From positions 32,001 through 96,000 of IMG/VR virus record IMGVR_UViG_3300021256_000062: a stretch of 64,000 nt of DNA. The stretch is one strand, 5' to 3'. This document shows positions 3,385 through 64,000 of this stretch, piece after piece. Position 1 is the stretch's first letter. Every line of letters begins with the position of its first letter. Both the position numbers and the translations under genes were made by a program. This DNA is from a virus (lineage: Duplodnaviria; Caudoviricetes). Under the pieces are notes generated by a model that did not search any database, had not been told where the DNA came from, and saw nothing but the letters and a program-made list of their open reading frames with translations.

Positions 3385-4181
3385 TAACTTATTCCTTTTG
3401 ATAATTTCCAAAGTTCTATTAAATAATTAGTTAATAAATCTTCTCTTTTAAATCTACTATCATTTAATCTAATTGCATATTTTTGAGTTAACATATAATA
3501 ACTGAAATAATTACTATTTGATATACATGAACATTTTAATTTATATAACATTAGTTTAAAGAATGTATTAACATTGAATTTTCCATATTGGTCTTTATAG
3601 TTAAATTGTGATGTTATTGATAACATATTTGAGAAATTAGCATCTTGTAATTTCAAAATTATAGTATCACATAATCTATCTAGTGATTGTAAATCTTCAT
3701 TTACAATATCATTCATTTGACCAGGTGTAGTACATATATTTAATAATATAGGTTTATTCTCATCAGATGCTAGTGTATATGCAATATCATCCATTAAGAA
3801 TTCTTTACTATATCTTTCAAACTGATATATTATACATCTATTTAATATTGTATTTAACACCAAATTTTTATTATTTACCAATACACATACAAATGTATAG
3901 GCATCATAATCTTCTAGGAATTTTAATAATATATTTTGGTCTTTAACTTCTTCTATATCTATAGTATATAATGTAGGTACTCTACTTACTTGTATTTCTG
4001 CAATTAAATCATTTGATATTGTTTCAGTTATATCTTGATACTCAAGCTCTTTCATTTCAGCAATATCTTTTGAAAATAGATGTTTACCACATCCATCATC
4101 TCCTAACAATATAAATGCATGTGGTAGAACTTTCATATTCATAAATGTATTAACTAATTTTTCTTGACCTCTTAATTGCAA
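3384..4181 (-). CDS. holB: Clamp loader delta-prime subunit (HolB-like)
   Basis: RGQE, PHAFILLGDDGCGK, QNILLKFLED, TILNRC. Confidence 0.75.
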   Translation of the reverse strand: MQLRGQEKLVNTFMNMKVLPHAFILLGDDGCGKHLFSKDIAEMKELEYQDITETISNDLIAEIQVSRVPTLYTIDIEEVKDQNILLKFLEDYDAYTFVCVLVNNKNLVLNTILNRCIIYQFERYSKEFLMDDIAYTLASDENKPILLNICTTPGQMNDIVNEDLQSLDRLCDTIILKLQDANFSNMLSITSQFNYKDQYGKFNVNTFFKLMLYKLKCSCISNSNYFSYYMLTQKYAIRLNDSRFKREDLLTNYLIELWKLSKGIS

Positions 4182-4186
4182 TTAAA

Positions 4187-4429
4187 TCAACTCCTATTGA
4201 ATAATAATATTATACCGGCAATTAAAAATATAATCAAGTATAATCCTAAAGTCAATGCAATTGGGAACCATAATGGGAACCATACCCAAAACCAAGTAAA
4301 TGATTCAGGAAATACATTTGTGACTTTTAAAATTAAGAATACTAACCAAGTAATAAATCCCATAGATTCTAAGCTAATACTTGCAACTACTGTTTTTGGA
4401 CTATTATCATATTCATTAATAGTATACAT
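4187..4429 (-). CDS. Small membrane protein
   Basis: Two hydrophobic helices, WFWVWFPLW motif. Confidence 0.7.
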   Translation of the reverse strand: MYTINEYDNSPKTVVASISLESMGFITWLVFLILKVTNVFPESFTWFWVWFPLWFPIALTLGLYLIIFLIAGIILLFNRS

Positions 4430-4430
4430 T

Positions 4431-5444
4431 TTAAACTCCTCTACACATTTTAATCATCATAACTTCAATAGTGGAGAATAGATTTGTATCATACTTGATT
4501 GCATTTTTGATTTCTAATATTCTATCTACAAATCTAGAGTAGTAAGTTTTACTATCTCCTTCTCCAACTGTATATATTAAATCTTCTTTGAATATTCCAG
4601 GGATTTTAATTGAATCTAAATCCCTAAATATACTATACTTAAATAAATCCAATGCAAAATCTAGGAAATGTTCAATGAATAATTTCAAATCATACCCCTT
4701 ATTATACAAGTCTTCTATTGTGGTAATTACTAAATTATCATTTCCATCTATTATTGCATTTGTTAAATCAAACATTATTTTATAGGAGAAATCTCCTAAT
4801 ACATCTAGTGTTGTTTCTATTTTAAAATCAGTTGAGTATGCAGCAACTTTATCTAATAAAGCAATTGCATCTCTCATTCCACCATTTGCTAACTTTGCAA
4901 TGTAATCAATTGATTCTTCATAATTAGTAAATTTTTCTTCTCTACAAATCATAAGTAATCTTTCTTTAATCTTATCAGTTGGAATTCTAGTAAGATTGAA
5001 TCTCATTACTCTATTTAATATTGTATTTGGTATCTTTTGTGGGTCAGTTGTACAAAAGATAAATATAGTATATTTTGGTGGTTCTTCTAGACATTTAAGA
5101 AATGCTTGCCAAGCTGCATTTGTAAGAACGTGACATTCATCTATAATTATTACTTTATATGTACTAATGTCTCTTTCACTTGCGTGGTCAACTATATTTC
5201 TTATTTTATCTACACCATTATTAGATGCAGCGTCTATTTCAATTGGATGTCCTTCTCCATTATTTATCATATTTGCCATTATTCTAGCGATAGTTGTTTT
5301 ACCACATCCTGAAGAACCTGTAAATAAATAAACATTCTTAAAAGTCTTTTCAACTATTTGTTTATTTAAACTTTCTACAATGTGTTCTTGAGAAACAACA
5401 TCACTAAATTCTTTTGGTCTATATTTAGTTGCTAATGTTTCCAT
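4431..5444 (-). CDS. dnaX: Clamp loader gamma/tau subunit
   Basis: LATKYRP, GSSGCGKTT, EIDAASNNGVD, IIDECH, LKCLEEPP, GGMRDA. Confidence 0.93.
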   Translation of the reverse strand: METLATKYRPKEFSDVVSQEHIVESLNKQIVEKTFKNVYLFTGSSGCGKTTIARIMANMINNGEGHPIEIDAASNNGVDKIRNIVDHASERDISTYKVIIIDECHVLTNAAWQAFLKCLEEPPKYTIFIFCTTDPQKIPNTILNRVMRFNLTRIPTDKIKERLLMICREEKFTNYEESIDYIAKLANGGMRDAIALLDKVAAYSTDFKIETTLDVLGDFSYKIMFDLTNAIIDGNDNLVITTIEDLYNKGYDLKLFIEHFLDFALDLFKYSIFRDLDSIKIPGIFKEDLIYTVGEGDSKTYYSRFVDRILEIKNAIKYDTNLFSTIEVMMIKMCRGV

Positions 5445-5461
5445 TTAATTTATCACCAACT

Positions 5462-5812
5462 TTATATCTTATTTATTACATCAATTTCATCCATTGGTAA
5501 CCAACCAAACCAATTTTCTACGAATGATGTGCAATTTAAATCATTAAATCCTATTCCTGATACTTTAATCATGTTACCCATAACTTGTGTTACTTCCACT
5601 TGATAGAATCTTCCTTTAGGTAATCTACCATTGTTCCAATTAATTAAATTACTATCTTGATTATAAATAGAATCATTCAATCTAATTAGGTAACATTTAT
5701 CAGTTTCCATATGTAATTTGTCATTCTTATTAATTTTATAGTGTTCTTCTTCAACTTTAACTAGGTTTGCATATTTTAATTTATTTAATTCTCTAGTTAA
5801 TCTTTCACTCAT
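5462..5812 (-). CDS. Hypothetical protein
   Basis: ORF coupled to upstream gene by ATGA overlap. Confidence 0.7.
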   Translation of the reverse strand: MSERLTRELNKLKYANLVKVEEEHYKINKNDKLHMETDKCYLIRLNDSIYNQDSNLINWNNGRLPKGRFYQVEVTQVMGNMIKVSGIGFNDLNCTSFVENWFGWLPMDEIDVINKI

Positions 5813-6018
5813 ATAGACTGTCTAATAGCCCTTATTTGTTTATCTACTTCATCATTAACTTCATTCCAAAGTTTTTCCTTTTCTTCTTCTAGATTAACAT
5901 TATCTGGATTATTAATAACTTTCTCCATTGTAAATTCAACCTTTGCTGAATTAAAGTTACCTAGATTTAAGGTAAATGATGATGTTGCGATAATCCTTGT
6001 AGTTTCAATATCTTTCAT
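5809..6018 (-). CDS. Hypothetical protein
   Basis: GGAG RBS and own promoter; TLNLGNFNSAKVE motif common in small phage proteins. Confidence 0.7.
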   Translation of the reverse strand: MKDIETTRIIATSSFTLNLGNFNSAKVEFTMEKVINNPDNVNLEEEKEKLWNEVNDEVDKQIRAIRQSI

Positions 6019-6038
6019 TTACATCACTCCTACTTAAA

Positions 6039-6067
6039 ATTATAACACTATTTAAATTATTTGTCAA
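6039..6067 (-). promoter_or_regulatory. Sigma70-type promoter
   Basis: TTGACA-17 nt-TATAAT with extended TG; the -35 overlaps the upstream TGA stop. Confidence 0.85.
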
Positions 6068-6420
6068 TTGTTTTCTTCCTCTAACTTTTCAACTAAGAAT
6101 TTCATTAACTTTTCATCTATAATAAAAAAGTTTTCTTGTTCAGGACCAAAGTTAAATGCTATACAATTTTCATCAGCTCTAACATTAAATGCATCAGCCC
6201 TATTTTTATCAATCCATTCCTTTTTAATTGAAAATGAATTTTTATCTTCCATACAAGTTTTGCACTCTATTAAGAGAGATGCATTAGGAACAACTACATC
6301 TCCCTTTCTATAAAGTCCTGCACCTGAGTTTGAATTCTTTTGACCATTTAATAACTTTGCAACATATGTTTCTTGTAAATCACTGAAATATCTTGTTGAT
6401 TGTTTATTTTTAGTATCCAA
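6064..6420 (-). CDS. Holliday junction resolvase (Hjc-like PD-(D/E)XK)
   Basis: QE..VAK, NSGAG..KGDV, LIECKT. Confidence 0.75.
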   Translation of the reverse strand: MDTKNKQSTRYFSDLQETYVAKLLNGQKNSNSGAGLYRKGDVVVPNASLLIECKTCMEDKNSFSIKKEWIDKNRADAFNVRADENCIAFNFGPEQENFFIIDEKLMKFLVEKLEEENN

Positions 6421-6422
6421 TA

Positions 6423-7592
6423 TTATTCACTCTCCATTTGTTCTTCTTTTAGATTAACTCCAAATTCTTCTTCAATGTTAATTCCTAACATCTTTTCAAA
6501 TGAAACAACATTTGGATTATCCTTAATTGCAATCAATTCATACACTTTATCATAAATAGTTCTCCAGAAGTCTACATTCTCTTCTAAATACTTTTTAACA
6601 TTAGATTCACCATTTATTTTGATTTCCTTACCCGTAGAATCAGTTATTGGTTGTCCAGTGTCTAAATTAATAAAATTATACCAACTATTATTAATTTTAT
6701 TTATGATTCCAAAATGAGTTGCAACTTCAATAGTATCCCATAATACATCAATACCTTTAGTATAGTGTAGATGACATCTTCCAAGTTTTCTATCCCACTT
6801 ACAGAATTTTGTCTTTAATACTGCCATTTCAATAACATGTCCTGCTGGGCTACCATCTGAACATTTTTCACCAGCTTCATTAAAGAATTCTCCACGTTTA
6901 AATCTTAATCTTAATGAACAAGCTCTCTTCCAAGCATTTCCACCTGCAGTTTTCTCTGGATTTCCAAACATACAGTTAGGGTCTAAATACAAACCATTAA
7001 TACCTATAAATGTAGTCTTGTATCTATTAATTAAACCTGTGCTTCTCTTAACAAAGTCTGAAATACATTTAGCAAGTGTACCCATATCTTTCTTTTCCAT
7101 ACCAGCATTACTTACTTGTTGTGGTGCAATGGCAACTAAAGAGTCGAATATTACTAATCCAATTTCTCCTGTTTTAATACCATTGATAACAATATCAAAT
7201 AATTGTTCAGCGGATTGACCGGCTGCCTTTACATATACTGTTCTGATTTCTTCATCATTCATATCATATCCTGATTTAATTGACCAAGTAGGGTCAGCTG
7301 TACCCTCGGCATCTATAAATAAGATATGTTTTCTTTCTTCTATTGGTTTCTTCTTTTCTTGTCTAATAAAACATCCTGCCATTAAGAATGCTGCAGTAGT
7401 TTTACCAGATGATTCTGGACCAACTAATTCAATAAAACAAGCTCTAGGGATTGAGTTATATACACAGAAATCCCAACTAGGAGTTCCTAGAGAGAATGTC
7501 TCTTTGAATCCATCTAATTTAACACCATACACAGCAAGATTATCCATCTTGTATGTTTTATTAATATCTTTTATAAAACTATCTAATGACAT
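6423..7592 (-). CDS. recA: RecA/UvsX recombinase
   Basis: IELVGPESSGKTT, FIDAE, VIFDSLVA, GGNAWK. Confidence 0.92.
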   Translation of the reverse strand: MSLDSFIKDINKTYKMDNLAVYGVKLDGFKETFSLGTPSWDFCVYNSIPRACFIELVGPESSGKTTAAFLMAGCFIRQEKKKPIEERKHILFIDAEGTADPTWSIKSGYDMNDEEIRTVYVKAAGQSAEQLFDIVINGIKTGEIGLVIFDSLVAIAPQQVSNAGMEKKDMGTLAKCISDFVKRSTGLINRYKTTFIGINGLYLDPNCMFGNPEKTAGGNAWKRACSLRLRFKRGEFFNEAGEKCSDGSPAGHVIEMAVLKTKFCKWDRKLGRCHLHYTKGIDVLWDTIEVATHFGIINKINNSWYNFINLDTGQPITDSTGKEIKINGESNVKKYLEENVDFWRTIYDKVYELIAIKDNPNVVSFEKMLGINIEEEFGVNLKEEQMESE

Positions 7593-8146
7593 TAGTTACT
7601 CCCTTCATTAAATGGGTTTACATAATCAGAATAATCTTTTTCATTCATTCTCTTTGAGATTATTTTAGATAATGTTTTTACCATTTCATTTGCACTTTCA
7701 ATTTTTGTTTTAATAATTCTAAAACTTCTAGCATATATTGCATTCACTATGCTATCATTCATAGATGCTGATTCTGCATATGCTCTATTTTCATCAACAG
7801 TTGTTTTCTTACCACTCGCAATATTTTGTATTTGATTATCAGAATATGCTTGGTTATATTTAATTTTTACATTTGCTTTAGATAAATCATCATATAGTCC
7901 TAAAAATTCTCCTTTAGAACCTAAAAAGTATATTGCATTTGTTAATTCTAGGAAATATTTCTCTAGTACTGCATCTGATACTAAATCTGCATTAATAACA
8001 TCTCTATTGATGTCTTTCATTATATCATCTAATACTTGAGTATATTCATTAACAATATCATCACTGATTGTTCTTATGTCATTTACATTTTCATCAATAT
8101 ACTTTTTTATATTTTTAATTTCATCTAAATTAATTGTAGTTTCCAT
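7592..8146 (-). CDS. Helical protein, possible UvsY-like recombination mediator
   Basis: All-helical, coupled to recA; function inferred from position. Confidence 0.45.
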   Translation of the reverse strand: METTINLDEIKNIKKYIDENVNDIRTISDDIVNEYTQVLDDIMKDINRDVINADLVSDAVLEKYFLELTNAIYFLGSKGEFLGLYDDLSKANVKIKYNQAYSDNQIQNIASGKKTTVDENRAYAESASMNDSIVNAIYARSFRIIKTKIESANEMVKTLSKIISKRMNEKDYSDYVNPFNEGSN

Positions 8147-52828: not shown

Positions 52829-52842
52829 TATATAATTTAGCT
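52829..52842 (-). promoter_or_regulatory. Putative phage-specific promoter AGCTAAATTATATA
   Basis: Identical to 20909-20922; about 30 nt upstream of sheath ATG. Confidence 0.55.
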
Positions 52843-53440
52843 AGTCTTTTAATTCAATATTTGAATTTTCTTCATCAATACTAACATTGTTTTTATATGG
52901 TAATGAGAAGAAATAAGCATCATCTACTACAAATCTAATTGTCCACCTTGTAAATTGGTCAGGTGCCAATCTTAATGGTATATCGGATGTATCTTCTATT
53001 GTAGGTAATACTCGAATATTACTCCAATGTTCATATTGAATATTATTATAAGGTAAAATTACCTTTACTGTAGGGAAATTTTGTAATTGGAACACAAAGT
53101 TCCTTAAGTATTCATCTCCCTCATTAAAATATCTAGTGTATATATCTATTTGATAAGATATAGTCATTGGTATTGCATCAATTTGTAATGATTTATCATG
53201 AGTGGCAGCTAGCATCATACCATCATATGACATTACTTTTTTATGTGTATATTGTAACTCAATTTCGGGATTTCTAGTTATAGTAATTAAAGGTAGTGTT
53301 ATAGGAGTATCTTTAGTCTCATCTGCCTTTATTTGAAATAATCTTTCAGTTTCATCTGGAGATAACACCTTTAATGACTCATCCTTAATCCAACTTTTAA
53401 TTTTAGCCACAATTGCTTCATCATATAATCTAATAGACAT
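52841..53440 (-). CDS. Tail terminator (gp15-like)
   Basis: LPLITITR, IP..ISYQIDIYTR; upstream of sheath. Confidence 0.7.
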   Translation of the reverse strand: MSIRLYDEAIVAKIKSWIKDESLKVLSPDETERLFQIKADETKDTPITLPLITITRNPEIELQYTHKKVMSYDGMMLAATHDKSLQIDAIPMTISYQIDIYTRYFNEGDEYLRNFVFQLQNFPTVKVILPYNNIQYEHWSNIRVLPTIEDTSDIPLRLAPDQFTRWTIRFVVDDAYFFSLPYKNNVSIDEENSNIELKD

Positions 53441-53442
53441 AT

Positions 53443-53841
53443 TTAAACCATCCTATTCCTTAATTTATATAATTGGTAATAACTATATCCTTGATTTATT
53501 ATATCGTTAAACCATTTTGAAATTGTATATGTTCCTTTTACATCTAAATTACCAAACTCAATTAAATTAATTAACTCCGATATTTTATGACCACCATATC
53601 GTGCATTAGAATTTAAATCTAATAAATAATAATGTTTTGTTATAGTGACATATGAGTGGTTAAGTGCATATATTAATATGTCATATGTATAAGTTGGTTT
53701 TCCAAATAATCTGGTTAAATACTTATCCATTTTAACATATTTATAATTCATTCTATCTGAATTCCACTTAACTTTTAAAATGTATGGAACAAAATTTATA
53801 AAATATCCATCTGAGTAATTATCATAAATTTTTAATTGCAT
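53443..53841 (-). CDS. Hypothetical virion-associated protein
   Basis: LIEFGN motif; neck region. Confidence 0.6.
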   Translation of the reverse strand: MQLKIYDNYSDGYFINFVPYILKVKWNSDRMNYKYVKMDKYLTRLFGKPTYTYDILIYALNHSYVTITKHYYLLDLNSNARYGGHKISELINLIEFGNLDVKGTYTISKWFNDIINQGYSYYQLYKLRNRMV

Positions 53842-53842
53842 A

Positions 53843-54703
53843 TTATAAATCCTTTATTTGGTTTAAATATGTCTTTAAATCTTTTAATAATTCTTTATCT
53901 CCACTTATTTTACTTAATAAATTATCTAATTTATCTTTATCTTGAATTTCTTCCTTATTGTCTTTCTTAATATTTCTAGATAATAATGAAACATTCTTTC
54001 TAATTTCTTGTTCAGTTCTCATTAATTTATTAATTTTATTTGGAGTTGGTTTTGCACCATCATAATATAATACAAGATTAACCAATTCTCTATAACTAGG
54101 TTTAGATGAATCTACAAATTGATGTCCAACACTATCACCTGAAAATGTAATTAATCTAGGAGTTCCATCTTGATTTTCAACATCTTGATATTCACTAACT
54201 AATCTTCTACTTTCATAATCATCAGTTAAGTATGCCCAAACATCAATTACATAATCTTGTTTTCTCTCATTATCATCATAGAATTCTGAGTCCTCTAAAA
54301 CACTTGCCCTAGTTCCATCCATTAAAGATTTATTAGTTAGTACATTATTAGAGTATTTATTGTTTATTATTGCCAACTCATTATAAGTGGGCTTTATGTT
54401 AACTCTATTTAAATACTCTAAATAATTAATGAAAGGATTACTATTTTTATTTAATGTTTTAAATGCTGACACCCAATTACCAATTAAATTCATAGAAGAT
54501 TCATCATCTACAAGATATGATAAATTTTTAAGATTATTTATAATGTAATAAGAAACTACTTTATTAATATCTTCTGGAGCACCTGTAATTGCTTTTTGTA
54601 ATGCACCTTCATAATCATTTCTTTGTACTAAATCATAAATATCAGTACTTGTAAATTCTTGTTCAGTAGGAAGACTTGCTTCAGTTAAAATCAATTTATT
54701 CAT
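53843..54703 (-). CDS. Hypothetical protein, possible internal head protein
   Basis: N-terminus MNKLILTE-A resembles a cleaved capsid-targeting peptide. Confidence 0.6.
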   Translation of the reverse strand: MNKLILTEASLPTEQEFTSTDIYDLVQRNDYEGALQKAITGAPEDINKVVSYYIINNLKNLSYLVDDESSMNLIGNWVSAFKTLNKNSNPFINYLEYLNRVNIKPTYNELAIINNKYSNNVLTNKSLMDGTRASVLEDSEFYDDNERKQDYVIDVWAYLTDDYESRRLVSEYQDVENQDGTPRLITFSGDSVGHQFVDSSKPSYRELVNLVLYYDGAKPTPNKINKLMRTEQEIRKNVSLLSRNIKKDNKEEIQDKDKLDNLLSKISGDKELLKDLKTYLNQIKDL

Positions 54704-55218
54704 TATGTATCTTCCTCCACTAATAAATTAAATGTATCTTGTGAATGAGATAATTGACTTCTGTCAAAATTATCTATATATTCAGGAACTATCTTACATG
54801 CAACTGAAGCTGGGTAAATCATTATTCCACTGATATCTACTACTCTAAATACTCTTCCCTTTGTATTATCAAATCCACTTGGAACAATGAATAATGCTCC
54901 TTGTTGCAAATTCTCTAAATCATATGGAACGTGTATAACTGAAGCATCTTCTTGTCTTTCAGAATTCCATCCTAATAATTTAGTAGTCTTTTGTGTAGGG
55001 TGTTCTTCAAAGATACATCCTACAACTTTAGGAGAACTGTAACTAGATATCAATTCTCCTTGTGTAGTATATTGTTTATTTTGATTAATAGGAGTTTTGT
55101 ATAAACAATTTACTCCCATTAATCTAACCATTTCTTTGAACCATTGTCTATGTAACTTAATATCAGGAGTTAATAATTTCCCATAACTATCTCTTGATGT
55201 GATATAATTTTCATCCAT
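54703..55218 (-). CDS. Head closure/neck protein (gp14-like)
   Basis: FKEMVRLMG...Y; position between head and tail genes. Confidence 0.6.
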   Translation of the reverse strand: MDENYITSRDSYGKLLTPDIKLHRQWFKEMVRLMGVNCLYKTPINQNKQYTTQGELISSYSSPKVVGCIFEEHPTQKTTKLLGWNSERQEDASVIHVPYDLENLQQGALFIVPSGFDNTKGRVFRVVDISGIMIYPASVACKIVPEYIDNFDRSQLSHSQDTFNLLVEEDT

Positions 55219-55244: not shown

Positions 55245-58200
55245 TTATTTTCTTCTATTAGAAACTTTACCACGAATATTTCTAGAATTTCCATCTACTT
55301 TAACTTTATAATCAAAGTTTAAACTTTCTGATAATAGTTTTTTATTTTCAACTGTACAGTTTAATGTGAATGCTTTTTTATTCTTAGCAAATGTTTCATT
55401 AATACCTTTGTATTGTAATTTATTTTCTTTTTGAGATGACTTTTCAAATAAGAATTTAGTTTCTTTTGTTTTTCCATTCTTATATGTTAATAATCCTTCA
55501 AGAATTAAATTACCTTTTTCTGATTTACAATTAGATAATTTGAAATCTTTTACATTTTCATAAACTGAAATACAATATTTATTAACTAGATTTTCAAATA
55601 ATGATTCATCAACATCATCATAAGTATCAGTAGGTTCTAACTCAGATAAGATTTCATAAACTAAATCTGGATTACCTTTTACGAAATTGAAGAATGCATC
55701 TTCTTCAGCTTGTTGTTCTTTAGTACCTCTTGGTAAATCTTCATATCCATCAGTACTTATTGTAATATCTCCAGATTGAACTCTATCTTTAAAGTCATCA
55801 TAAAGAGTATCTTCTAAATCAATGTAACTATATAATTTACCTTTGTATGCAACTTCAGGGTCTGCCCACTCACCATGCCAAATAAATTCAACTTCAGGAA
55901 CACCATAGAATAAATCAGCTTCTACTTCTCCTGTTTCTTGGTTATAATGAGCTTCTAAAAATTTAGATTTCTTTTTAGGAGTTTTATCATCACATCCTTC
56001 AGTTTTACAAGATTCTTTCTTAACACCATAATCAGCTAAAATTTGTTTAGCATTGTCGGCTTTGAATCCATTTTGTTTTAACCAATCTTTAATATGTCTT
56101 AAAGTTGTTTGTGAGTAAGTACCATAAATTACAGGTTTACCATCTTTAATTTCACCAACTAAAGTATCATATGAGAATAATTGATTCTTATCATTATTAT
56201 CTCCTGTATTTACTTGTGCTTTACCATAGAAAGATTTTCTACTATCATATTGTGGTTCTAATCCATAAATAGGTGCTTCAGTTAAACTTTCATTAGTATT
56301 ATCTTGTTCACCATTATCTCCTTTTAAGATTAATTCACAAATATGACCAATATCATTACCAAAATCAAATAATACTTCATCCCAAGTTTCATTTGTTAAA
56401 TCTGCAGGTGATGATACATATTCTTCTAATACTTCCCATTGGTCTGCAATATATGTTAATGCTGAGTCAACTTCTTCAGTTACTACATCATATATAGCAT
56501 TTTCATAGTCTCTAGTTTTTAAATCTTCAAAATCAATTCTATTTAATATTTCGGCAACAATATCTAGGAAATCGAAATTTACTGAATAATCAAAATATTT
56601 ACCAATTATATCTTTATATGGAGATTTTTGTATATCACCTTTAGCTTCTTTTAATTGTTTTGTAAAATTAGGATTTTCAAATCCATATGATTTTAATTCT
56701 TCAACTAATTTTGATTTATCTTCTAAGCTTAATGATTCTTTAATTCTCTTTGAGATTTCAATAAGTTTTTCATCAATAGGTCTTGCCTTTGCAATTTTAA
56801 TTGATTCATTCTTATTTACACCAACTCCATTTTTAACAAGTAAGTCTCTAATTACTGTTGGGTCGGCACCATATACTTCAAATCCATCATACTCCCAACC
56901 TTCGAAATCATCTACAAATCTAGAACTTTCTAGTACACCTAGTACTTCTTCATATTCAGGTTGAGAACTTGTTGTAATAATTGTATTTGCACTTACCTTA
57001 ATTGATTCATTTAATTTATCTTTAGATTCACTAATTGCTTTAGTTACTCTTCTAATAAATCTTTCCTTAATTAATTTCTTTTTAGATTCAGTTAGTGCTT
57101 TAACTTGTTTTTTAGATTCATTGATTTGTTTACCATTTTTCTTTAAAGATTCATCTAAGTCCCATTCAATATTAGTAATTGTAACAGTTCCATCTTTATC
57201 TTCAATATCTAAACCGTTAACTAAATATCCATAAGAATCTGATAAATAATCAGTAACAACATCATTTAAATCATCAGTTTCGGGGTCATAATTTAATTCT
57301 TCATAAGTAACTGTTTCTTCAGTAGGTAATCCTAAATCCTCTAATTTATCTTCATATGATGGTTCTTTTTCATTATAGTAATCTTCAACATCTTGAATCA
57401 TATCTTGGAATAAGTCATCATACATATCAGCTACCACTTGTTGGTCATCAATTACACCATAATGAACACCTAAATCTACAATATCACTTGTGTAGATTAA
57501 TCCATCATCAATTGCACCATTTACAGCATCACTAGGTTCATAACCATCATCTACCCAAGATTTTGCTCTATCAATTAAACTATTTAATACATCATAGAAC
57601 CCCTCTTTTAGTTGTTGAGATTCTTTTAAATTTTCTTTCAATGGTTCAAGATTTCCACTCATTAGTGCTTTAAAATCTTCTTTACTTCCAACTCTATACC
57701 AACAAGGTGCATTTACCGTAGTATTTATATCGTGAACTAATAAGTAATCTTGATTTTCACCATCAGTAAAATACTCAAAATTACCATCATTATATTCTGG
57801 ACCTTGATATTTGTCAAAACCATCCATATCTTTGTAAGAAACTTTATTTCCAGTATATTTACGAATTAGATTTGCAAGATATTTTTTCCAATTAATACCT
57901 TGTTCATCATCTTCCCACTCACCAGTTTCTCTTAATGATTTGTTTTCTTTTAATGGTTCTTCAATAACACTTACTTCTCCAAATAAAACATCTCTTGTTT
58001 CATCATTATCATATTCAGGATGTGCTTTAACATAATCATCAATGAATTCTAATGCAGTTTGAGCATTTCCATCATATACATAGCCTACTTTTTTCTTATA
58101 TTCTTCCCAAGCATTTTGAAAGTCTGCTAATTCGCCATAAGATAAATCTTCTTTAACTGATTTCCCACAACCTTCATCCATATTTCTATTGTGTCTCTCA

Positions 58201-58907
58201 GCTCTAGTTAAGTTTCTTTCTTTTAAATTGTCTTCTTTTTTACTCCCATCGCAAGATTCTTCTTTTGGAGTTACATTAAAAGATTTTCTAACGGCTTTAC
58301 CTACAGTCCCATCTAGACCATATTCTTCTTTTAAATTAGTGGGGATATCTTCTTTTGCATTTTTCATTTTAAAAGATTCTTTTAAAATTTTTCTTGCTTT
58401 TGCTTTTTTAGATAATCCTTCATCTACCTTTTTATCATCTTCATCGGGTTCATCTTCTGAGTCATCATCAGATTCATCGTCATCTAACCAATCAGTTAAA
58501 TCATCTAAATCATCTTCTTCAGTATCAGTTTCTCCACCATAAGGTGCGACTTTACCTTTAACTTCGAATCCATCTTTTTGTTGACAATGTGGACAAGGTT
58601 CACCTACATTAAATAATGTAGGTTCATCTTCACTTTGTTCAACCTCATCTTCATCTTTATAATGAATTGTATGACAAGTAGGGCAGTATAGAAGAAGAGA
58701 ACCTACATAAGTATCTCTTAAATCTTCTTCATCTTCTGCATCTATGTCAACTACCATTTCAATGTCAGATACATCATCAATATCTTCCATTCTTTCTTTT
58801 GCTTTCTTGGCGTCATCTTTGTCGCCTAAATTAAATTTATTTTTCTTTTTGTTTTCTTTGTCATCTAATAAATCTAATTCTTGAAATGCTTCAATTAAAT
58901 ATGACAT
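55245..58907 (-). CDS. Giant acidic modular protein (putative protease-processed head polyprotein)
   Basis: 1220 aa; N-terminal CPTC/CPHC domain; many LKE/ESL/LNES linkers between unrelated domains. Confidence 0.75.
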   Translation of the reverse strand: MSYLIEAFQELDLLDDKENKKKNKFNLGDKDDAKKAKERMEDIDDVSDIEMVVDIDAEDEEDLRDTYVGSLLLYCPTCHTIHYKDEDEVEQSEDEPTLFNVGEPCPHCQQKDGFEVKGKVAPYGGETDTEEDDLDDLTDWLDDDESDDDSEDEPDEDDKKVDEGLSKKAKARKILKESFKMKNAKEDIPTNLKEEYGLDGTVGKAVRKSFNVTPKEESCDGSKKEDNLKERNLTRAERHNRNMDEGCGKSVKEDLSYGELADFQNAWEEYKKKVGYVYDGNAQTALEFIDDYVKAHPEYDNDETRDVLFGEVSVIEEPLKENKSLRETGEWEDDEQGINWKKYLANLIRKYTGNKVSYKDMDGFDKYQGPEYNDGNFEYFTDGENQDYLLVHDINTTVNAPCWYRVGSKEDFKALMSGNLEPLKENLKESQQLKEGFYDVLNSLIDRAKSWVDDGYEPSDAVNGAIDDGLIYTSDIVDLGVHYGVIDDQQVVADMYDDLFQDMIQDVEDYYNEKEPSYEDKLEDLGLPTEETVTYEELNYDPETDDLNDVVTDYLSDSYGYLVNGLDIEDKDGTVTITNIEWDLDESLKKNGKQINESKKQVKALTESKKKLIKERFIRRVTKAISESKDKLNESIKVSANTIITTSSQPEYEEVLGVLESSRFVDDFEGWEYDGFEVYGADPTVIRDLLVKNGVGVNKNESIKIAKARPIDEKLIEISKRIKESLSLEDKSKLVEELKSYGFENPNFTKQLKEAKGDIQKSPYKDIIGKYFDYSVNFDFLDIVAEILNRIDFEDLKTRDYENAIYDVVTEEVDSALTYIADQWEVLEEYVSSPADLTNETWDEVLFDFGNDIGHICELILKGDNGEQDNTNESLTEAPIYGLEPQYDSRKSFYGKAQVNTGDNNDKNQLFSYDTLVGEIKDGKPVIYGTYSQTTLRHIKDWLKQNGFKADNAKQILADYGVKKESCKTEGCDDKTPKKKSKFLEAHYNQETGEVEADLFYGVPEVEFIWHGEWADPEVAYKGKLYSYIDLEDTLYDDFKDRVQSGDITISTDGYEDLPRGTKEQQAEEDAFFNFVKGNPDLVYEILSELEPTDTYDDVDESLFENLVNKYCISVYENVKDFKLSNCKSEKGNLILEGLLTYKNGKTKETKFLFEKSSQKENKLQYKGINETFAKNKKAFTLNCTVENKKLLSESLNFDYKVKVDGNSRNIRGKVSNRRK

Positions 58908-58926
58908 ATTCTAATCTCTCCTTCTA

Positions 58927-61900
58927 TTACTTTTTAATACTATCATCTAAATAACTCATTATTGAACCATATTCTTTTAATGATTCATCTTCTGGATATG
59001 AACCATATAAAACTGATTCATCTTCATCTACAACCTCAGCTGATACAGCATATCCCTTATCAACTAACCAATCACAAACATCTTTTGCTTCATCTAAATC
59101 GGAATATTCACCATAATAATCAGCAATACCCTGGTCTCTTAAAACATCATCTGCCCAATATTTAATTGAGTATTGTGCATCAGAATCATCACTTTCATTT
59201 ATATTTTCTTGAGCTTTTCTTCTCTTTATTTTCATTCTATATTTATTAGCTGGTTTTGTTTCTTTAGAAACCATAACTTTCTTTGCTAATTCATTAGAAT
59301 TTTTAATGTTCTCTTCTTTATCATCAGTTAGTTTGATTTCATCTATATCATCCCAACCATATCCCCAATTTCCTTGTAGAACTTTATATTTATCTTTTTT
59401 CTCAAATAAATTTTCAAATAATTCTTCATCAGTTAATACATCATCAACTAATTCATCTGGATGAACTATATAATAAATTAATGTTATATATGCATTTAAA
59501 TTTTCTTCATCATTTAATTTAACTAATTCATCTAAAATTTCTTCATAAGAATGGTTGTGGTGTAATAATGAATATAAATTATCATATTTTGAATCTGTTT
59601 GACTCAACTCATATGTTTCTTCTTCAAGTGGTCTTAAGATATAGTCATCATAGTACATTGGGTCTAATCTATCCACTGCGCCTACTAAATCTAACTCATC
59701 ATCTTCAATATCACCTAAATTAGCACCTTGATTGTCTCTTAATTTATATACTTCTTCTCCATCTTCATTTTGTGTCTTATAGATTGTAAAATCGAAAGAA
59801 TCAAAGAATTCTGAAGCTGTTAATTTATCAGGTTTATTTGAGTATTTAGCAACTCTCTCATTTAAGTTCTCATCAGTTCTAGGTGCGATGTATTCTAAAT
59901 GACCATAACCTGCATCTTCAGTCTCTTTAAGAGTTTCAAATGGTCCATCTATTTCTTTACCACTACTGTCATCAACAATGTACCAAGCACCATCTTGTTT
60001 TACTCTAATCCAATCTTTTTTGCTTTCCTTTAAGTTTAATTTAACTGGGTAATTACTTTCATACTCTGCAATTAAATCTTTAACTTTTTGGTCATTTAGA
60101 TTTGCTTTCTTTAATGTTTTTACATAATCTGGTGCAGCAACTGTGTGTTGACCATTATGTACATAAGCATCAAAGTTACCTTTTCTATCTCCTATTGATT
60201 TAAATACAATGATTGGTTCACCATCTTCTTCATAATAAATTTTAGCATTTAATTTTTGTACATCTTCTTTTAAGTTTTCATCAATGTATTCTTTACCAGT
60301 ATCTAATAAACATTGCAATCTATCTATTTCTGCTTCAACCTTTTTTGATGCACTACTATCCCCGTGATATTGTTTTTGTAATTTTGAATATTTGTCCACT
60401 AATCGTTGTATTTCATCTTTGATTTTGATTTTACCTTCTTTAAGACTTTCATCAAAATAATCTAAATTATCTGGATTTGCTAAAAAAGTATTATCATAGT
60501 AACCATTATATTTTCTTGGTTTATCTCTCTTGATAGTGAATACTTCTAAGTTACCTTGATAATCTCTATCAACAATGCTTCCTACATCACCAATGTTTCT
60601 TTCACCACCTTTAGACCAACCATCATTATTTACATATTTAACTCTGTCGCCTACTGAAAATACTCTATGAGGTTTTCTATCTTTTATTGGTGCATCTTCT
60701 TTTAAGTTTTCATCTAATGTACCATCATATAACGTTTCAGTATAATCTAATAAACCATTTTCATAATGAACTCTATTGATTATAATATCTCCACCATATT
60801 CATCACTTAATTCTTCAATGATTTCTTCATCTGTTGTGCCGTCAAAATACTCTCCCTCGCCCTCATCGAAATATTTAATAGTTTCACCATTACCATCAAC
60901 TACCTCAATTTGAGTATAACTATCATCCAAATTTAAACTTTCATTAGTTAACTTTGATTTAATTTTAAATCTTTCAAGTTCACTATCTTCATCATATACA
61001 TCAAATTTAGTATTAAATAGTTTTACCATCTCATTAAAGTCTTCTGGGAAAGTACTTATTGAACATTCATTTGAACTAACTAACCCAGTAACTTTAACAT
61101 CTTTATTATTTTCTTTTGCAAATTTCTTTGCATCATTAATTAGATTTTGTGTATCATCTAAAGTTTCTTTTACATTTTTATTCTTAACTAAATAAGTAAT
61201 GTCACTTACTTGTTCAACTCTATCTTTATATTTCTTGAACATTCTATCTTGTTCTTCTTTAGTTTTTGCAACATATGGATTTGAACCATCCTCAAATTTA
61301 AATTGAATCCATTTTTCATTTATAGATTCATTAACACTTCTGACTCTACTAAATTGAGAGTCAGCTGCATTAATTAATTCTTCTTCAGTTGCGTCCATTC
61401 CTAAAGTTTTAGCAAGTTTAACAAGTTCTCCTGGAGTTCCCTTAACTAGGTAATTTCCTCTAACTTTATCATATTCTAAACCTAAATCTTTTAATTGATT
61501 TTCATCAATTTCATTATTTAGTACAAAGAATCCTAATTTATTTGATTTATTTTCCTTTAATGATTCATCAGTATCATCATTCTCAGATTCATTGTCATTT
61601 CCTAAATTTCTACCAAATACTTGGAAATTAACTGCATATGGACTTCTACCATGTTTAGCATCAAATACAAATTCACCATCAGGATATTTAGCAAGTAAGT
61701 CTTTTAATATTTTATCAGGACTATCAACTCTACCATATAATCCATTTTCAAAATTGTCTCCAACTACTTCAAATCCTTTAGATTCGAAATCACTTTGGTC
61801 AAGACAAGTATTTGCTCTTCTTGGATTATTAATTAGATTATCTAAATAATCGTCTGGATTTTGTTTAATACAAGCCTCACAGTAAATACCATCATTATCT

Positions 61901-63999
61901 ACAATACCATAATCATCAGGATTACTTGAACCAAAATCAATTAATTCTCCACAACCATAACAAGCTGTAAACATATCTGAGAATCCCCATTTATCATCAA
62001 GGATTTCATCTAATTTTCTAGTATCAGTATCACTCTTTGGTTCATAATCAGGTGCTAAGAATTTTTGTAATTCAATTGCTTCATCCCAACTATCCACAAT
62101 GAAGAATGGTTCTTCATCATCATATGCTACATTTAAATTAGGGAATGCATCTAATACTTTAGAATAAGTTTCTCCATCTAAACTTTCTTTAACATTTTTC
62201 TTCTTTGATGTAAATAGTTTTGATTTATCAATAACTGATTCTTTAAAACAATTTCTACATGCTTTTTTATTAGTTGATTCATTTAATTTAAAGAATGGGT
62301 CAAATAAATCTTTACTAATCTTTTTATATGTTTGTTCAGTTAAATTATCTTCCATTAAATCTTTAGCCTTTTTAACTACCTTAGCTAAGTCATCAAATTC
62401 ATCATAAATTGTATCATCTTCAATATCAATTACTTCTTGTAATTTATCATTCATTTCATATAATGATTTATTTAAAGTACCTCTAATGAAATCACCAGCT
62501 TCTCCTTCAGTCATTGTTTCAGGAGTACCATCATATTCAGCTAAGTCAGTAACTACAATTCCTCTTGCAGATGTCCAATTACTTATCTTATCTTGAATAC
62601 TTTGTAATTTTTGTCTAATATTATTTTCAGATGTATTATTTACATTTTCAGTTACTTGTTTTGCACATTCTTCTACAACTTTATATTGACTCTTATCTTT
62701 ATTTGATGTGTACTTTGTTAAGTAGTCAATGATTTGATTTGCATCATTGAATTTACTATAATCTTGAACCATATTTGCATTTCTTACTTGTGCATCATAA
62801 TTAGATTTTGGAGTTCCCTTATATTTACCATTCTCTTTATAGATTACATAAGTTACCTTATCATCTAGGGATTCTCTTTTTGATTTTCTAACTTTTACTT
62901 TATCTTCAGGTTTAATTTCAATTTCATCTAATTCAGTTCCAGCTGTTGCAATTGCTTTTTGACCTGCATATTTAACTTTTCTATCTTGTCTAATTTTATT
63001 TAGAAGTTCTTTATTTGTTTTATAATTATTACTTGAGAATTTGTATTCATCATTTACATAAACATCTCTTTTTGCAAATGCTTCTTCAACATCTTCTTCA
63101 TCATATTTATATTGTTTGTCATAATCTCTTTCCCAAACAACACCTTCATCATATTCATCAATTACATCTTCAGACTCAAAGTCACTCACTAATGCAAATT
63201 GCAATTGTCTATGTGTTACTGAAATTCCCCTATTCTTCTTAGCGTCTGCAATTGCTTCTTCTTTAGTTTCAAAGTATTCTTCAGTTCCATCATCATATTC
63301 TACAATATATTCATCTTGCCAATCTTCTCCGGTAACTGCAAGGTCAATATCATTAATAACTCTTTCATTTTGAATTGTGATAGTAAATGTATTAGTGTCA
63401 CATCCATATGGGTCTTTTTCAACATCATTATAATCACCGCTGATTTCTCCTGTAAATGTTGAATGTGACCATCCACCACCTAATCCACAATCAAATTCAA
63501 ACTCATTATAATATTTAACTATTTGTTCAGGACTTTCTCCTTTAAATTCACTTTCCCAATAAGTAAAATTTAATTCAATTGTAGCTGGGATTGCAGCACC
63601 ATCTACTATATCTCTTCCATAATAATAAGAACTAGCACTTACATTTTCAATATCACAATTTGCAGTGGCAGTTACTGTAATTTCATTTTCTCCATATTTA
63701 TTTGTTTCTGATTTAGTATCTAATATTTTAATATCTCTTAAACTAGAAACTGAACCTTTAACACTATATCCTGCACCAGGACCTTCTCTTAATGGTTTTT
63801 TACTTTCCACTAATTTACCACCACATACTGTATTACAAATAGATTCAACTAATTTGTTTATTTCATTTGATTTATTAATCATTACTTTAATTGTATCTCT
63901 ATTTAATTTAGATGTCCAACTTTTATCATCATCACATGCATTTAATGATTCTACAATTGCATCAACTTTATCATTAATATTTAATGAGTATTTAACTTC
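58927..63999 (-). CDS. Giant acidic modular protein (putative head polyprotein), 5' end outside window
   Basis: Frame stays open upstream of the track ATG (63882) to the window edge (..EVKYSLNINDKVDAIVESLNACDDDKSWTSKLNRDTIKV-M), so >1690 aa; repeated DESLKE/DENLKE linkers. Confidence 0.8.
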   Translation of the reverse strand, partial: EVKYSLNINDKVDAIVESLNACDDDKSWTSKLNRDTIKVMINKSNEINKLVESICNTVCGGKLVESKKPLREGPGAGYSVKGSVSSLRDIKILDTKSETNKYGENEITVTATANCDIENVSASSYYYGRDIVDGAAIPATIELNFTYWESEFKGESPEQIVKYYNEFEFDCGLGGGWSHSTFTGEISGDYNDVEKDPYGCDTNTFTITIQNERVINDIDLAVTGEDWQDEYIVEYDDGTEEYFETKEEAIADAKKNRGISVTHRQLQFALVSDFESEDVIDEYDEGVVWERDYDKQYKYDEEDVEEAFAKRDVYVNDEYKFSSNNYKTNKELLNKIRQDRKVKYAGQKAIATAGTELDEIEIKPEDKVKVRKSKRESLDDKVTYVIYKENGKYKGTPKSNYDAQVRNANMVQDYSKFNDANQIIDYLTKYTSNKDKSQYKVVEECAKQVTENVNNTSENNIRQKLQSIQDKISNWTSARGIVVTDLAEYDGTPETMTEGEAGDFIRGTLNKSLYEMNDKLQEVIDIEDDTIYDEFDDLAKVVKKAKDLMEDNLTEQTYKKISKDLFDPFFKLNESTNKKACRNCFKESVIDKSKLFTSKKKNVKESLDGETYSKVLDAFPNLNVAYDDEEPFFIVDSWDEAIELQKFLAPDYEPKSDTDTRKLDEILDDKWGFSDMFTACYGCGELIDFGSSNPDDYGIVDNDGIYCEACIKQNPDDYLDNLINNPRRANTCLDQSDFESKGFEVVGDNFENGLYGRVDSPDKILKDLLAKYPDGEFVFDAKHGRSPYAVNFQVFGRNLGNDNESENDDTDESLKENKSNKLGFFVLNNEIDENQLKDLGLEYDKVRGNYLVKGTPGELVKLAKTLGMDATEEELINAADSQFSRVRSVNESINEKWIQFKFEDGSNPYVAKTKEEQDRMFKKYKDRVEQVSDITYLVKNKNVKETLDDTQNLINDAKKFAKENNKDVKVTGLVSSNECSISTFPEDFNEMVKLFNTKFDVYDEDSELERFKIKSKLTNESLNLDDSYTQIEVVDGNGETIKYFDEGEGEYFDGTTDEEIIEELSDEYGGDIIINRVHYENGLLDYTETLYDGTLDENLKEDAPIKDRKPHRVFSVGDRVKYVNNDGWSKGGERNIGDVGSIVDRDYQGNLEVFTIKRDKPRKYNGYYDNTFLANPDNLDYFDESLKEGKIKIKDEIQRLVDKYSKLQKQYHGDSSASKKVEAEIDRLQCLLDTGKEYIDENLKEDVQKLNAKIYYEEDGEPIIVFKSIGDRKGNFDAYVHNGQHTVAAPDYVKTLKKANLNDQKVKDLIAEYESNYPVKLNLKESKKDWIRVKQDGAWYIVDDSSGKEIDGPFETLKETEDAGYGHLEYIAPRTDENLNERVAKYSNKPDKLTASEFFDSFDFTIYKTQNEDGEEVYKLRDNQGANLGDIEDDELDLVGAVDRLDPMYYDDYILRPLEEETYELSQTDSKYDNLYSLLHHNHSYEEILDELVKLNDEENLNAYITLIYYIVHPDELVDDVLTDEELFENLFEKKDKYKVLQGNWGYGWDDIDEIKLTDDKEENIKNSNELAKKVMVSKETKPANKYRMKIKRRKAQENINESDDSDAQYSIKYWADDVLRDQGIADYYGEYSDLDEAKDVCDWLVDKGYAVSAEVVDEDESVLYGSYPEDESLKEYGSIMSYLDDSIKK
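60261..60714. repeat. Exact 22-bp direct repeat encoding the DENLKED linker
   Basis: catcttcttttaagttttcatc at 60261-60282 and 60693-60714. Confidence 0.85.
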
Positions 64000-64000
64000 T

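Follow-up and report, generated by a model that had tools for sequence, protein, structure and literature searches.

The window analysed here, a stretch of 64,000 nucleotides (nt), comprises bases 32001–96000 of the single 158,917-bp contig (28% G+C) of IMG/VR virus record IMGVR_UViG_3300021256_000062, which derives from an uncultured phage with a genome of ∼159 kb. Two adjacent giant genes on its minus strand, the larger of which runs past the window end, probably encode head-cargo polyproteins that are packaged in the capsid and cut at recurring linker peptides by the phage's own prohead protease. Both are late genes of the neck/tail operon, and their products are chains of independently folding small modules, some 25–30 unrelated ones in the two genes together. 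This architecture and the reading of the linkers as protease sites are well supported in silico. According to the proposed mechanism, the chains would enter the prohead core via conserved terminal domains, and a gp21-type (S77) protease would cut after the Glu residues of the junctions as the head matures. Once released, the modules of 50–250 amino acids (aa) would stay in the head, exit with the DNA at infection and act before any phage gene expression. The guess that they take part in host takeover or counter-defence is based on the analogy to IPI and Alt of phage T4, the strongly acidic nature of most modules and their rapid shuffling between related phages.

The original prediction of two giant genes strung with a recurring motif was borne out, as both minus-strand open reading frames (ORFs) exist and contain every motif that had been listed. 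The ATG at 63882, originally taken as the start of the larger gene, is internal. The ORF of this gene opens at position 64080 (1717 codons), and the ATG at 64050 has a Shine–Dalgarno sequence (AAGGAG) 9 nt upstream. The 1707-aa product starting there corresponds to database protein P0003 of a public collection. Residue numbers of the larger protein given below follow the 1717-codon ORF, and 10 must be subtracted to obtain those of P0003. The system also reaches beyond the coordinates originally given, as the larger gene crosses the window edge and a third polyprotein gene, encoding 1360 aa, is located outside the window between the head genes and a gene for an ART-PolyVal protein, and its modules share 81–83% identity with modules of the larger gene's relatives. 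The predicted number of 15–20 effectors per gene agrees with the segment count of the larger gene (Table 1) and is too high for the smaller one, which has about 8–10 segments.

Linkers are much commoner in these proteins than composition predicts. The larger protein contains 10 copies of the pattern E[SN][LI]xE, where 0.33 were expected from shuffles and 0 of 200 shuffles reached the observed count; there are three copies in the smaller protein and six in the 1360-aa ORF (0.23 expected in each). Among the 195 ORFs scanned, only one other, of 611 aa, contains two copies, and each of the remaining 191 has at most one. The broader pattern [LIVFMT]xE[SN][LIVM] has 14, 9, and 10 occurrences in the three giants and seven in the prohead protease, compared to 0.6–1.4 expected in each (0 of 300 shuffles), and its frequency in the remaining proteome is close to the shuffle expectation. 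In the consensus of 131 sites, drawn from the phage and related ones, a stretch of acidic residues precedes [F/L/V/T/Y]-[D/N]-E-[S/N]-L-[K/N]-E-[D/S/A/N], which comprises two nested hydrophobic-x-Glu sites; the P3 position is occupied by F, L, V, T, or Y, the five commonest residues there, in 97 of the 131. Besides the strict motif, weaker junctions such as KESCK, LKEG, and VKETL are present. At the linkers, Ser is encoded by AGT, TCA, and TCT, which represent both codon families, and Leu by TTA, CTT, and TTG. DNA repeats at the linker-coding sites extend over only ∼28 nt with 75–93% identity. Owing to this synonymous variation and the shortness and divergence of the repeats, the conserved object is the peptide, and the codon usage at the sites points to selection acting on it.

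The prohead protease that the original prediction had suggested to look for is encoded in the same genome. This 510-aa protein belongs to the T4 gp21 family (PF03420, E 2.5e-17, 63.4 bits with a cut-off of 27; phrog_207), and the major capsid protein is a member of the Gp23 family (PF07068, E 9e-17). The coiled-coil tail of the protease is crowded with copies of the motif (VKESL, LRESL, VKESM, LTESL, LNESV, LNESL). Four protease-scaffold relatives in IMG/VR (41–54% identity) keep the coiled-coil fusion, contain 4–5 motif sites where 0.6 are expected, and have retained a site at the junction of protease and coiled coil, near residues 169–183. From this domain composition, one gene seems to supply both gp21-like and gp22-like (scaffold) functions. 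In T4, gp21 cleaves after Glu in L/I-x-E, fragments the scaffold proteins, and trims the internal proteins and Alt (PMC9026906). The strongest argument for the linkers being protease sites is therefore that the same motif is found in the scaffold tail of the protease, an expected substrate, and at the junctions of the giant proteins, from which we infer that both are cut by this enzyme.

Comparison of residues 518–1717 of the larger protein with 1.8 billion representatives by phmmer yielded 468 matches, which were pooled with those of a word-based search. When the small homologues (≤300 aa) were re-aligned, 101 of 109 fit within a single linker-bounded segment. Because of this fit, and since the linkers lie outside the folded parts in the AlphaFold2 (AF2) models of two modules, the modules can be regarded as real units. 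The proposal that several of them resemble stand-alone phage proteins held for at least three, namely the CxxC, QGANLGDIE, and RKSFYGKA modules, which have stand-alone homologues. For one such homologue, a contig of only 1.9 kb gave no informative gene context. The CxxC module has >90 stand-alone homologues with a median length of 209 aa, which align inside segment 633–839 and account for 91 of the re-aligned matches. Its AF2 model (70 sequences) has a predicted local distance difference test score (pLDDT) of 93.7 and a predicted template modeling score (pTM) of 0.84, and forms one compact domain covering residues 4–192 of the 206-aa segment; the acidic stretch before the DESLKE linker is of low confidence. 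The same fold constitutes entire uncharacterised proteins of Bacillus phage vB_BcoS-136 (207 aa, template modeling score 0.70), Mycobacterium phage DrLupo, and Rhodococcus phage ChewyVIII. No match to the CxxC module was obtained by tblastn against plasmids. Stand-alone homologues of the QGANLGDIE module (P0040, P0072, and P0092; 122–147 aa) are aligned over 94–99% of their length and lie wholly within segment 1405–1556, which takes four of the re-aligned small matches. The RKSFYGKA module matches phrog_4264 (E 5.7e-25, residues 880–961 of the 1220-aa protein); DUF8033 (PF26096) is assigned to it only in precomputed matches of homologues and was not reported by our own Pfam scan. Using tblastn, this module has matches in 102 phage records, mostly Herelleviridae, and its homologue in Enterococcus phage EF24C is a stand-alone 81-aa ORF within an array of small ORFs.

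Other modules are known mainly from related polyproteins. The GPGAGY module is found in P0004–P0016, P0028, and P0030 and in two copies in P0027, and in relatives sits in the other, DUF8033-type, polyprotein (e.g., P0008). Its AF2 model (17 sequences; pLDDT 80.9) shows a core flanked by disorder at the LVESKKPLREG junction and past residue 321. Copies of the YVHNGQH module with 65–79% identity occur elsewhere along the chains of P0004, P0018–P0022, and P0029. The HGEWADPE module of the smaller protein, P0001, is 81% identical to a module of P0019, a homologue of the larger type, so that modules evidently pass from one gene type to the other. Strongly acidic segments (isoelectric points 4.0–5.2) predominate, with a few basic ones among them, a composition that would be compatible with DNA-mimic-like inhibitors. 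Searches of both giants against Pfam and PHROGs returned only phrog_4264 and a weaker phrog_5643 match on the same module; with Pfam at E ≤ 0.1 no family was recovered beyond one chance-level match, and neither a peptidase nor a known polyvalent domain was detected. Pfam gave nothing useful for seven relatives of the giants, PHROGs assigned the stand-alone module homologues only to a family of unknown function, and a PDB sequence search found no match for either giant protein. Fold searches of the PDB with the two modeled modules (Foldseek, VIA-align wide) gave none above Z 4.5; matches to anti-Cas9 and AcrIF9 folds (Z 4.1–4.5) were within noise and were not used. An ESM Atlas search produced sub-threshold leads only.

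The ends of the chains are better conserved than their middles. The N-terminal domain of the larger type, about 75 residues long, shares 40–58% identity with the N-termini of P0004–P0007, P0018–P0022, P0025, and P0032. The sequence L-T-E↓S-L-K-E (the arrow marking the candidate cut) concludes the first ∼14 residues of this domain, and hydrophobic-x-E-[SN]-L at residues 12–16 is kept in most relatives. The capsid-targeting sequences of T4 are N-terminal peptides of 7–19 residues that end at a gp21 site, and by analogy this peptide is a predicted capsid-targeting propeptide. In the smaller type, the zinc-ribbon domain at the N-terminus (residues 1–123) has about 46% identity to P0008–P0014, and the C-terminal domain 46–60% to the C-termini of P0008–P0016 and P0031. 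Such conserved ends around variable middles would fit a targeting or anchoring part with exchangeable cargo.

Relatives of the giants in metagenomes (25 long and 46 shorter proteins) are themselves chains with the same linkers, differing in module content and order. Matches of high identity often start or stop exactly at linkers, for example those of residues 1212–1272 (93%) and of residues 522–631 of the 1360-aa protein (81%). In a set of 60 proteins of the family, high-scoring segment pairs (≥70% identity) have 736 internal ends, which are not mutually independent; 233 of these are located ≤10 aa from a linker site, compared to 89 ± 9 for random positions. The enrichment emerges clearly only when matches of high identity from the entire family are used, and is not significant for the proteins of this genome alone (P about 0.12–0.14). 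A full-length MAFFT alignment of the shuffled relatives misaligned modules and was not used for folding. The order of the gp13-like gene, two to three polyprotein genes, small ORFs, sheath, and tube is kept in three related contigs, in which the polyprotein genes themselves vary (806 + 1350 + 973, 1012 + 383 + 1154, and 636 + 766 aa). Scans of IMG/VR for close relatives with either giant found none.

Among the rival explanations, one also holds that the proteins are packaged or virion-associated, but assumes that they remain uncut, as the virion RNA polymerase of N4 and many polyvalent proteins do, and that the motif is a favoured flexible linker inherited with the cassettes. Polyvalent proteins are often delivered whole (PMC5512222), and the linkers are hydrophilic with acidic runs before them. 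A mere spacer, however, would not retain two nested hydrophobic-x-Glu sites at 131 junctions despite synonymous change, and the motif recurs in the scaffold tail of the protease in five phages; we consider this explanation rather unlikely. It is also unlikely that the giants are an auxiliary scaffold or core filler, which builds or sizes the prohead, is then degraded by the protease, and has no role in the host. Compact folded modules of 50–250 aa are too large to escape as peptides and have their homologues in small, separately encoded non-structural proteins of other phages, and rapid cassette turnover is unexpected for a scaffold, even though the giants share the motif with the protease's scaffold-like tail, conserved terminal domains enclose variable middles, and the T4 core proteins gp22, gp67, and gp68 are fragmented with most pieces leaving the head.

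There is very little to commend the view that the linker serves mainly at the DNA level, as a recombination signal by which cassettes are swapped, and has no role as a peptide. Breakpoints between relatives are indeed enriched at linkers, and two of the ∼28-nt repeats are 93% identical, but the repeats are short and only 75–93% alike, Ser from both codon families and Leu from three codons are used at the linkers, and the same peptide is present in the tail of the protease, a region without cassette exchange. A recombination role could be a side benefit of the cleavage sites rather than an alternative to them. Equally improbable are cytoplasmic late polyproteins that are never packaged and are cut by another protease, host-encoded or embedded. 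The placement of the proteins in the head does rest on indirect grounds; on the other hand, Pfam and PHROGs found no peptidase domain in the giants, in four phages the genes are flanked by the gp13-like neck gene on one side and by tail genes on the other, and the motif matches the family rule of the head protease. A tail fibre or decoration protein was rejected as a candidate, given that the chains are strongly acidic, lack fibre-like repeats, and contain zinc-ribbon or cytoplasmic-type modules.

Several observations count against cleaved head cargo as well. Some copies of the motif occur inside conserved terminal domains, where they are not linkers (e.g., IVESLNA and LVESICN near the N-terminus of the larger protein, LSESLNF near the C-terminus of the smaller one). 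The first 48 residues of the capsid protein contain the hydrophobic-x-E candidates ILE↓N and LTE↓T, and its likely propeptide site, YLTE↓T, is without the S-L that follows in the linkers. Moreover, the specificity of S77 proteases is known for T4, and would have to carry over to the enzyme of this phage. Sites of the strict motif take only 32% of the homology breakpoints, and two thirds fall elsewhere. The acidic modules contrast with the basic, DNA-associated internal proteins of T4, no recognised effector function was found for any module by Pfam, PHROGs, or PDB sequence and fold searches, and no tblastn match to the larger protein was obtained from cultured phages, leaving it without a cultured relative. 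Of the proposal that effectors are released from protease-cut polyproteins, the chains of modules, the position of the linkers outside the cores of the two modeled modules, and the fit to L/I-x-E have thus held up, and the effector role is still the guess stated above.

The closest known parallel is the head cargo of T4 (IPI, IPII, IPIII, and Alt), which is ejected with the DNA and of which IPI blocks a restriction enzyme (PMC9026906). Both phages have an S77-family protease (PF03420), a Gp23-type capsid protein, and hydrophobic-x-Glu sites, which in the present phage are candidate sites. The short N-terminal peptide ending in such a site resembles a capsid-targeting sequence, and an ADP-ribosyltransferase (ART) protein is encoded in the head-gene region. 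In T4, however, each cargo protein has its own gene and targeting peptide and loses only a terminal propeptide, whereas here 8–16 unrelated and mostly acidic modules share one reading frame, with proposed internal cuts. Polyvalent proteins (Iyer, Burroughs, Anand, de Souza, and Aravind, 2017) are likewise large mosaic multi-domain proteins with fast-evolving domains encoded among virion genes; the authors predicted that they are delivered together with the DNA and expressly compared them to the polyproteins of RNA viruses (PMC5512222). The system, originally put forward as a candidate new one, is thus not wholly new, since capsid-delivered multi-domain proteins of this kind have already been compared to viral polyproteins. 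Polyvalent proteins differ in having recognisable enzymatic domains and in being processed, where processing is present, by embedded peptidases such as MPTase (PMC5512222), whereas the giants consist of small uncharacterised modules with a regular junction motif that fits a separately encoded head protease. They do combine many disparate domains in one virion-region polypeptide. The polyvalent signature domains (MPTase, ART, helicase, methylase, LPD families etc.) are absent from them, and the only gene with ART-PolyVal is a separate one nearby. In phiKZ, 201phi2-1, and SPN3US, gp21-related proteases (gp175, gp245) cleave many inner-body and ejection proteins behind the Glu of a short motif, and these proteins are ejected into the host (PMC9026906, PMC10052503). 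The motif of the phiKZ enzyme, however, is S/A-x-E (PMC9026906), to which the linkers of this phage do not conform, the substrates are individual proteins from which mostly propeptides are removed, and shuffled cassette chains have not been described there. Full-text literature searches for polyproteins in connection with a prohead protease or ejection proteins retrieved no description of such an arrangement, and a literature search for DUF8033 found no mention.

If the giants are packaged and cut, one gene and one targeting signal would suffice to deliver a dozen or more pre-made proteins, a cargo-loading strategy of which we found no published description in tailed phages. The linkers would then serve both as cut sites and as seams for cassette swaps between phages. 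Small phage proteins without assigned function would acquire a context, as proteins needed at the first moments of infection, and counter-defence screens a defined list of candidates. We see an even chance that an uncultured gut/rumen clade of phages with T4-like heads possesses true polyprotein head cargo in this sense, with interchangeable and rapidly re-assortable in-frame cassettes, many of them ordinary small genes elsewhere among phages, that share one targeting domain, are cut in the capsid, and are injected before transcription. An engineering route might also open up. The T4 capsid-targeting system has already been used to load foreign proteins into heads, and such loading would be extended by a natural multi-cargo linker.

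The phage is of the myovirus type with a T4-like head. Its minus strand holds 195 of the 203 ORFs called, and cultured phages are very distant (≤29% identity of the sheath protein). In the order of transcription, the genes for the large terminase, portal, head maturation protease, and major capsid protein are followed by the 1360-aa ORF, the 979-aa protein with nucleotidyltransferase and ART-PolyVal domains, and a Ro60-like protein with 27 tRNAs and a transfer-messenger RNA (tmRNA). Then come a gp13-like head-tail adaptor, the two giant genes, four small ORFs, and the genes for tail sheath, tube, and baseplate hub. The giants had been described as lying beside the neck genes, and the T4 gp13-like adaptor gene (PF26809 in the copies of relatives) is in fact immediately upstream of them, with sheath and tube downstream. 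The 979-aa protein is, by its predicted domains, a classical polyvalent-type ADP-ribosyltransferase comparable to T4 Alt, and contains a single linker-like motif.

Table 1. Features of the giant genes, their linker-motif sites (7-residue windows) and modules, and associated genes (window coordinates unless genome coordinates are indicated)
Feature	Position	Strand	Description
Smaller polyprotein gene	55245–58907	−	1220 aa, P0001, DUF8033-containing type; Shine–Dalgarno sequence GAAGGAG upstream
Larger polyprotein gene	58927 to ATG 64050, past window end at 64000	−	1707 aa, ∼16 linker-bounded segments
Third polyprotein gene	genome 111187–115269 (window-equivalent 79187–83269), outside window	−	1360 aa, 6 strict and 10 extended linker motifs
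Motif site LTESLKE	63997–64017	−	larger gene
Linker VKESLDG	62173–62193	−	larger gene
Linker TDESLKE	61552–61572	−	larger gene
Linker VNESINE	61315–61335	−	larger gene
Linker TNESLNL	60928–60948	−	larger gene
Linker LDENLKE	60697–60717	−	larger gene
Linker FDESLKE	60436–60456	−	larger gene
Linker IDENLKE	60265–60285	−	larger gene
Linker TDENLNE	59857–59877	−	larger gene
Linker LFENLFE	59401–59421	−	larger gene
Linker AQENINE	59194–59214	−	larger gene
Linker EDESLKE	58972–58992	−	larger gene
Linker LKENLKE	57621–57641	−	smaller gene
Linker LDESLKK	57138–57158	−	smaller gene
Linker LNESIKV	56994–57014	−	smaller gene
Linker IKESLSL	56724–56744	−	smaller gene
Linker TNESLTE	56277–56297	−	smaller gene
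Linker VDESLFE	55593–55613	−	smaller gene
N-terminal domain, larger type	63826–64000, continuing to 64050	−	about 75 residues, conserved
GPGAGY...SASSYYYGR...GGGWSH module	63118–63774	−	most widely shared module of the family
CxxC...CxxC module	61564–62184	−	∼200 aa, between VKESL and DESLKE
YVHNGQH module	60028–60276	−	between IDENLKE and NLKES
QGANLGDIE module	59413–59868	−	∼150 aa, between DENLNE and FENLFE
N-terminal zinc ribbon, smaller type	58539–58907	−	CPTCH...CPHC, four Cys; begins MSYLIE↓A
RKSFYGKA...YSQTTLRH module	56025–56270	−	phrog_4264/DUF8033; starts directly after TNESLTE
HGEWADPE module	55614–55985	−	ends at VDESLFE
C-terminal domain, smaller type	55263–55604	−	starts at DESLFE
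979-aa protein	genome 107703–110642, outside window	−	nucleotidyltransferase and ART-PolyVal (PF18760, E 1e-13)
Prohead protease	genome 123912–125444, outside window	−	510 aa, Peptidase_S77 fused to ∼330-residue coiled coil

The four small ORFs between the polyprotein genes and the sheath gene (window positions 52841–55218; 171, 286, 132, and 199 aa) keep their order in relatives. They had no PHROG match, their copies in relatives had no precomputed Pfam match, and they presumably encode neck or tail-completion proteins. A search of the region against Rfam returned no RNA. At ∼97.8–103.5 kb of the genome, ARAGORN predicted the 27 tRNA genes and the tmRNA (tag ATLNNAPRAYAFA) adjoining the Ro60-like DUF2828/DUF7788 protein.

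Two further observations concern the relatives. The second polyprotein (766 aa) of a distant relative, the P0183 contig (ENA ERZ1029111, 149,870 bp), has a faint precomputed match to ArdA (PF07275), and nothing else in the family hints at a known anti-restriction module. In this genome TGA serves as stop codon in 19 of 195 ORFs and is not found within the giant genes. The homologous polyprotein gene of a close relative, contig jgi 3300028805 Ga0247608_10012569 (4077–8129), contains five in-frame TGA codons at Trp positions, one of which (codon 264) coincides in the alignment with the conserved W of VTGEDW. Therefore, that relative reads TGA as Trp.

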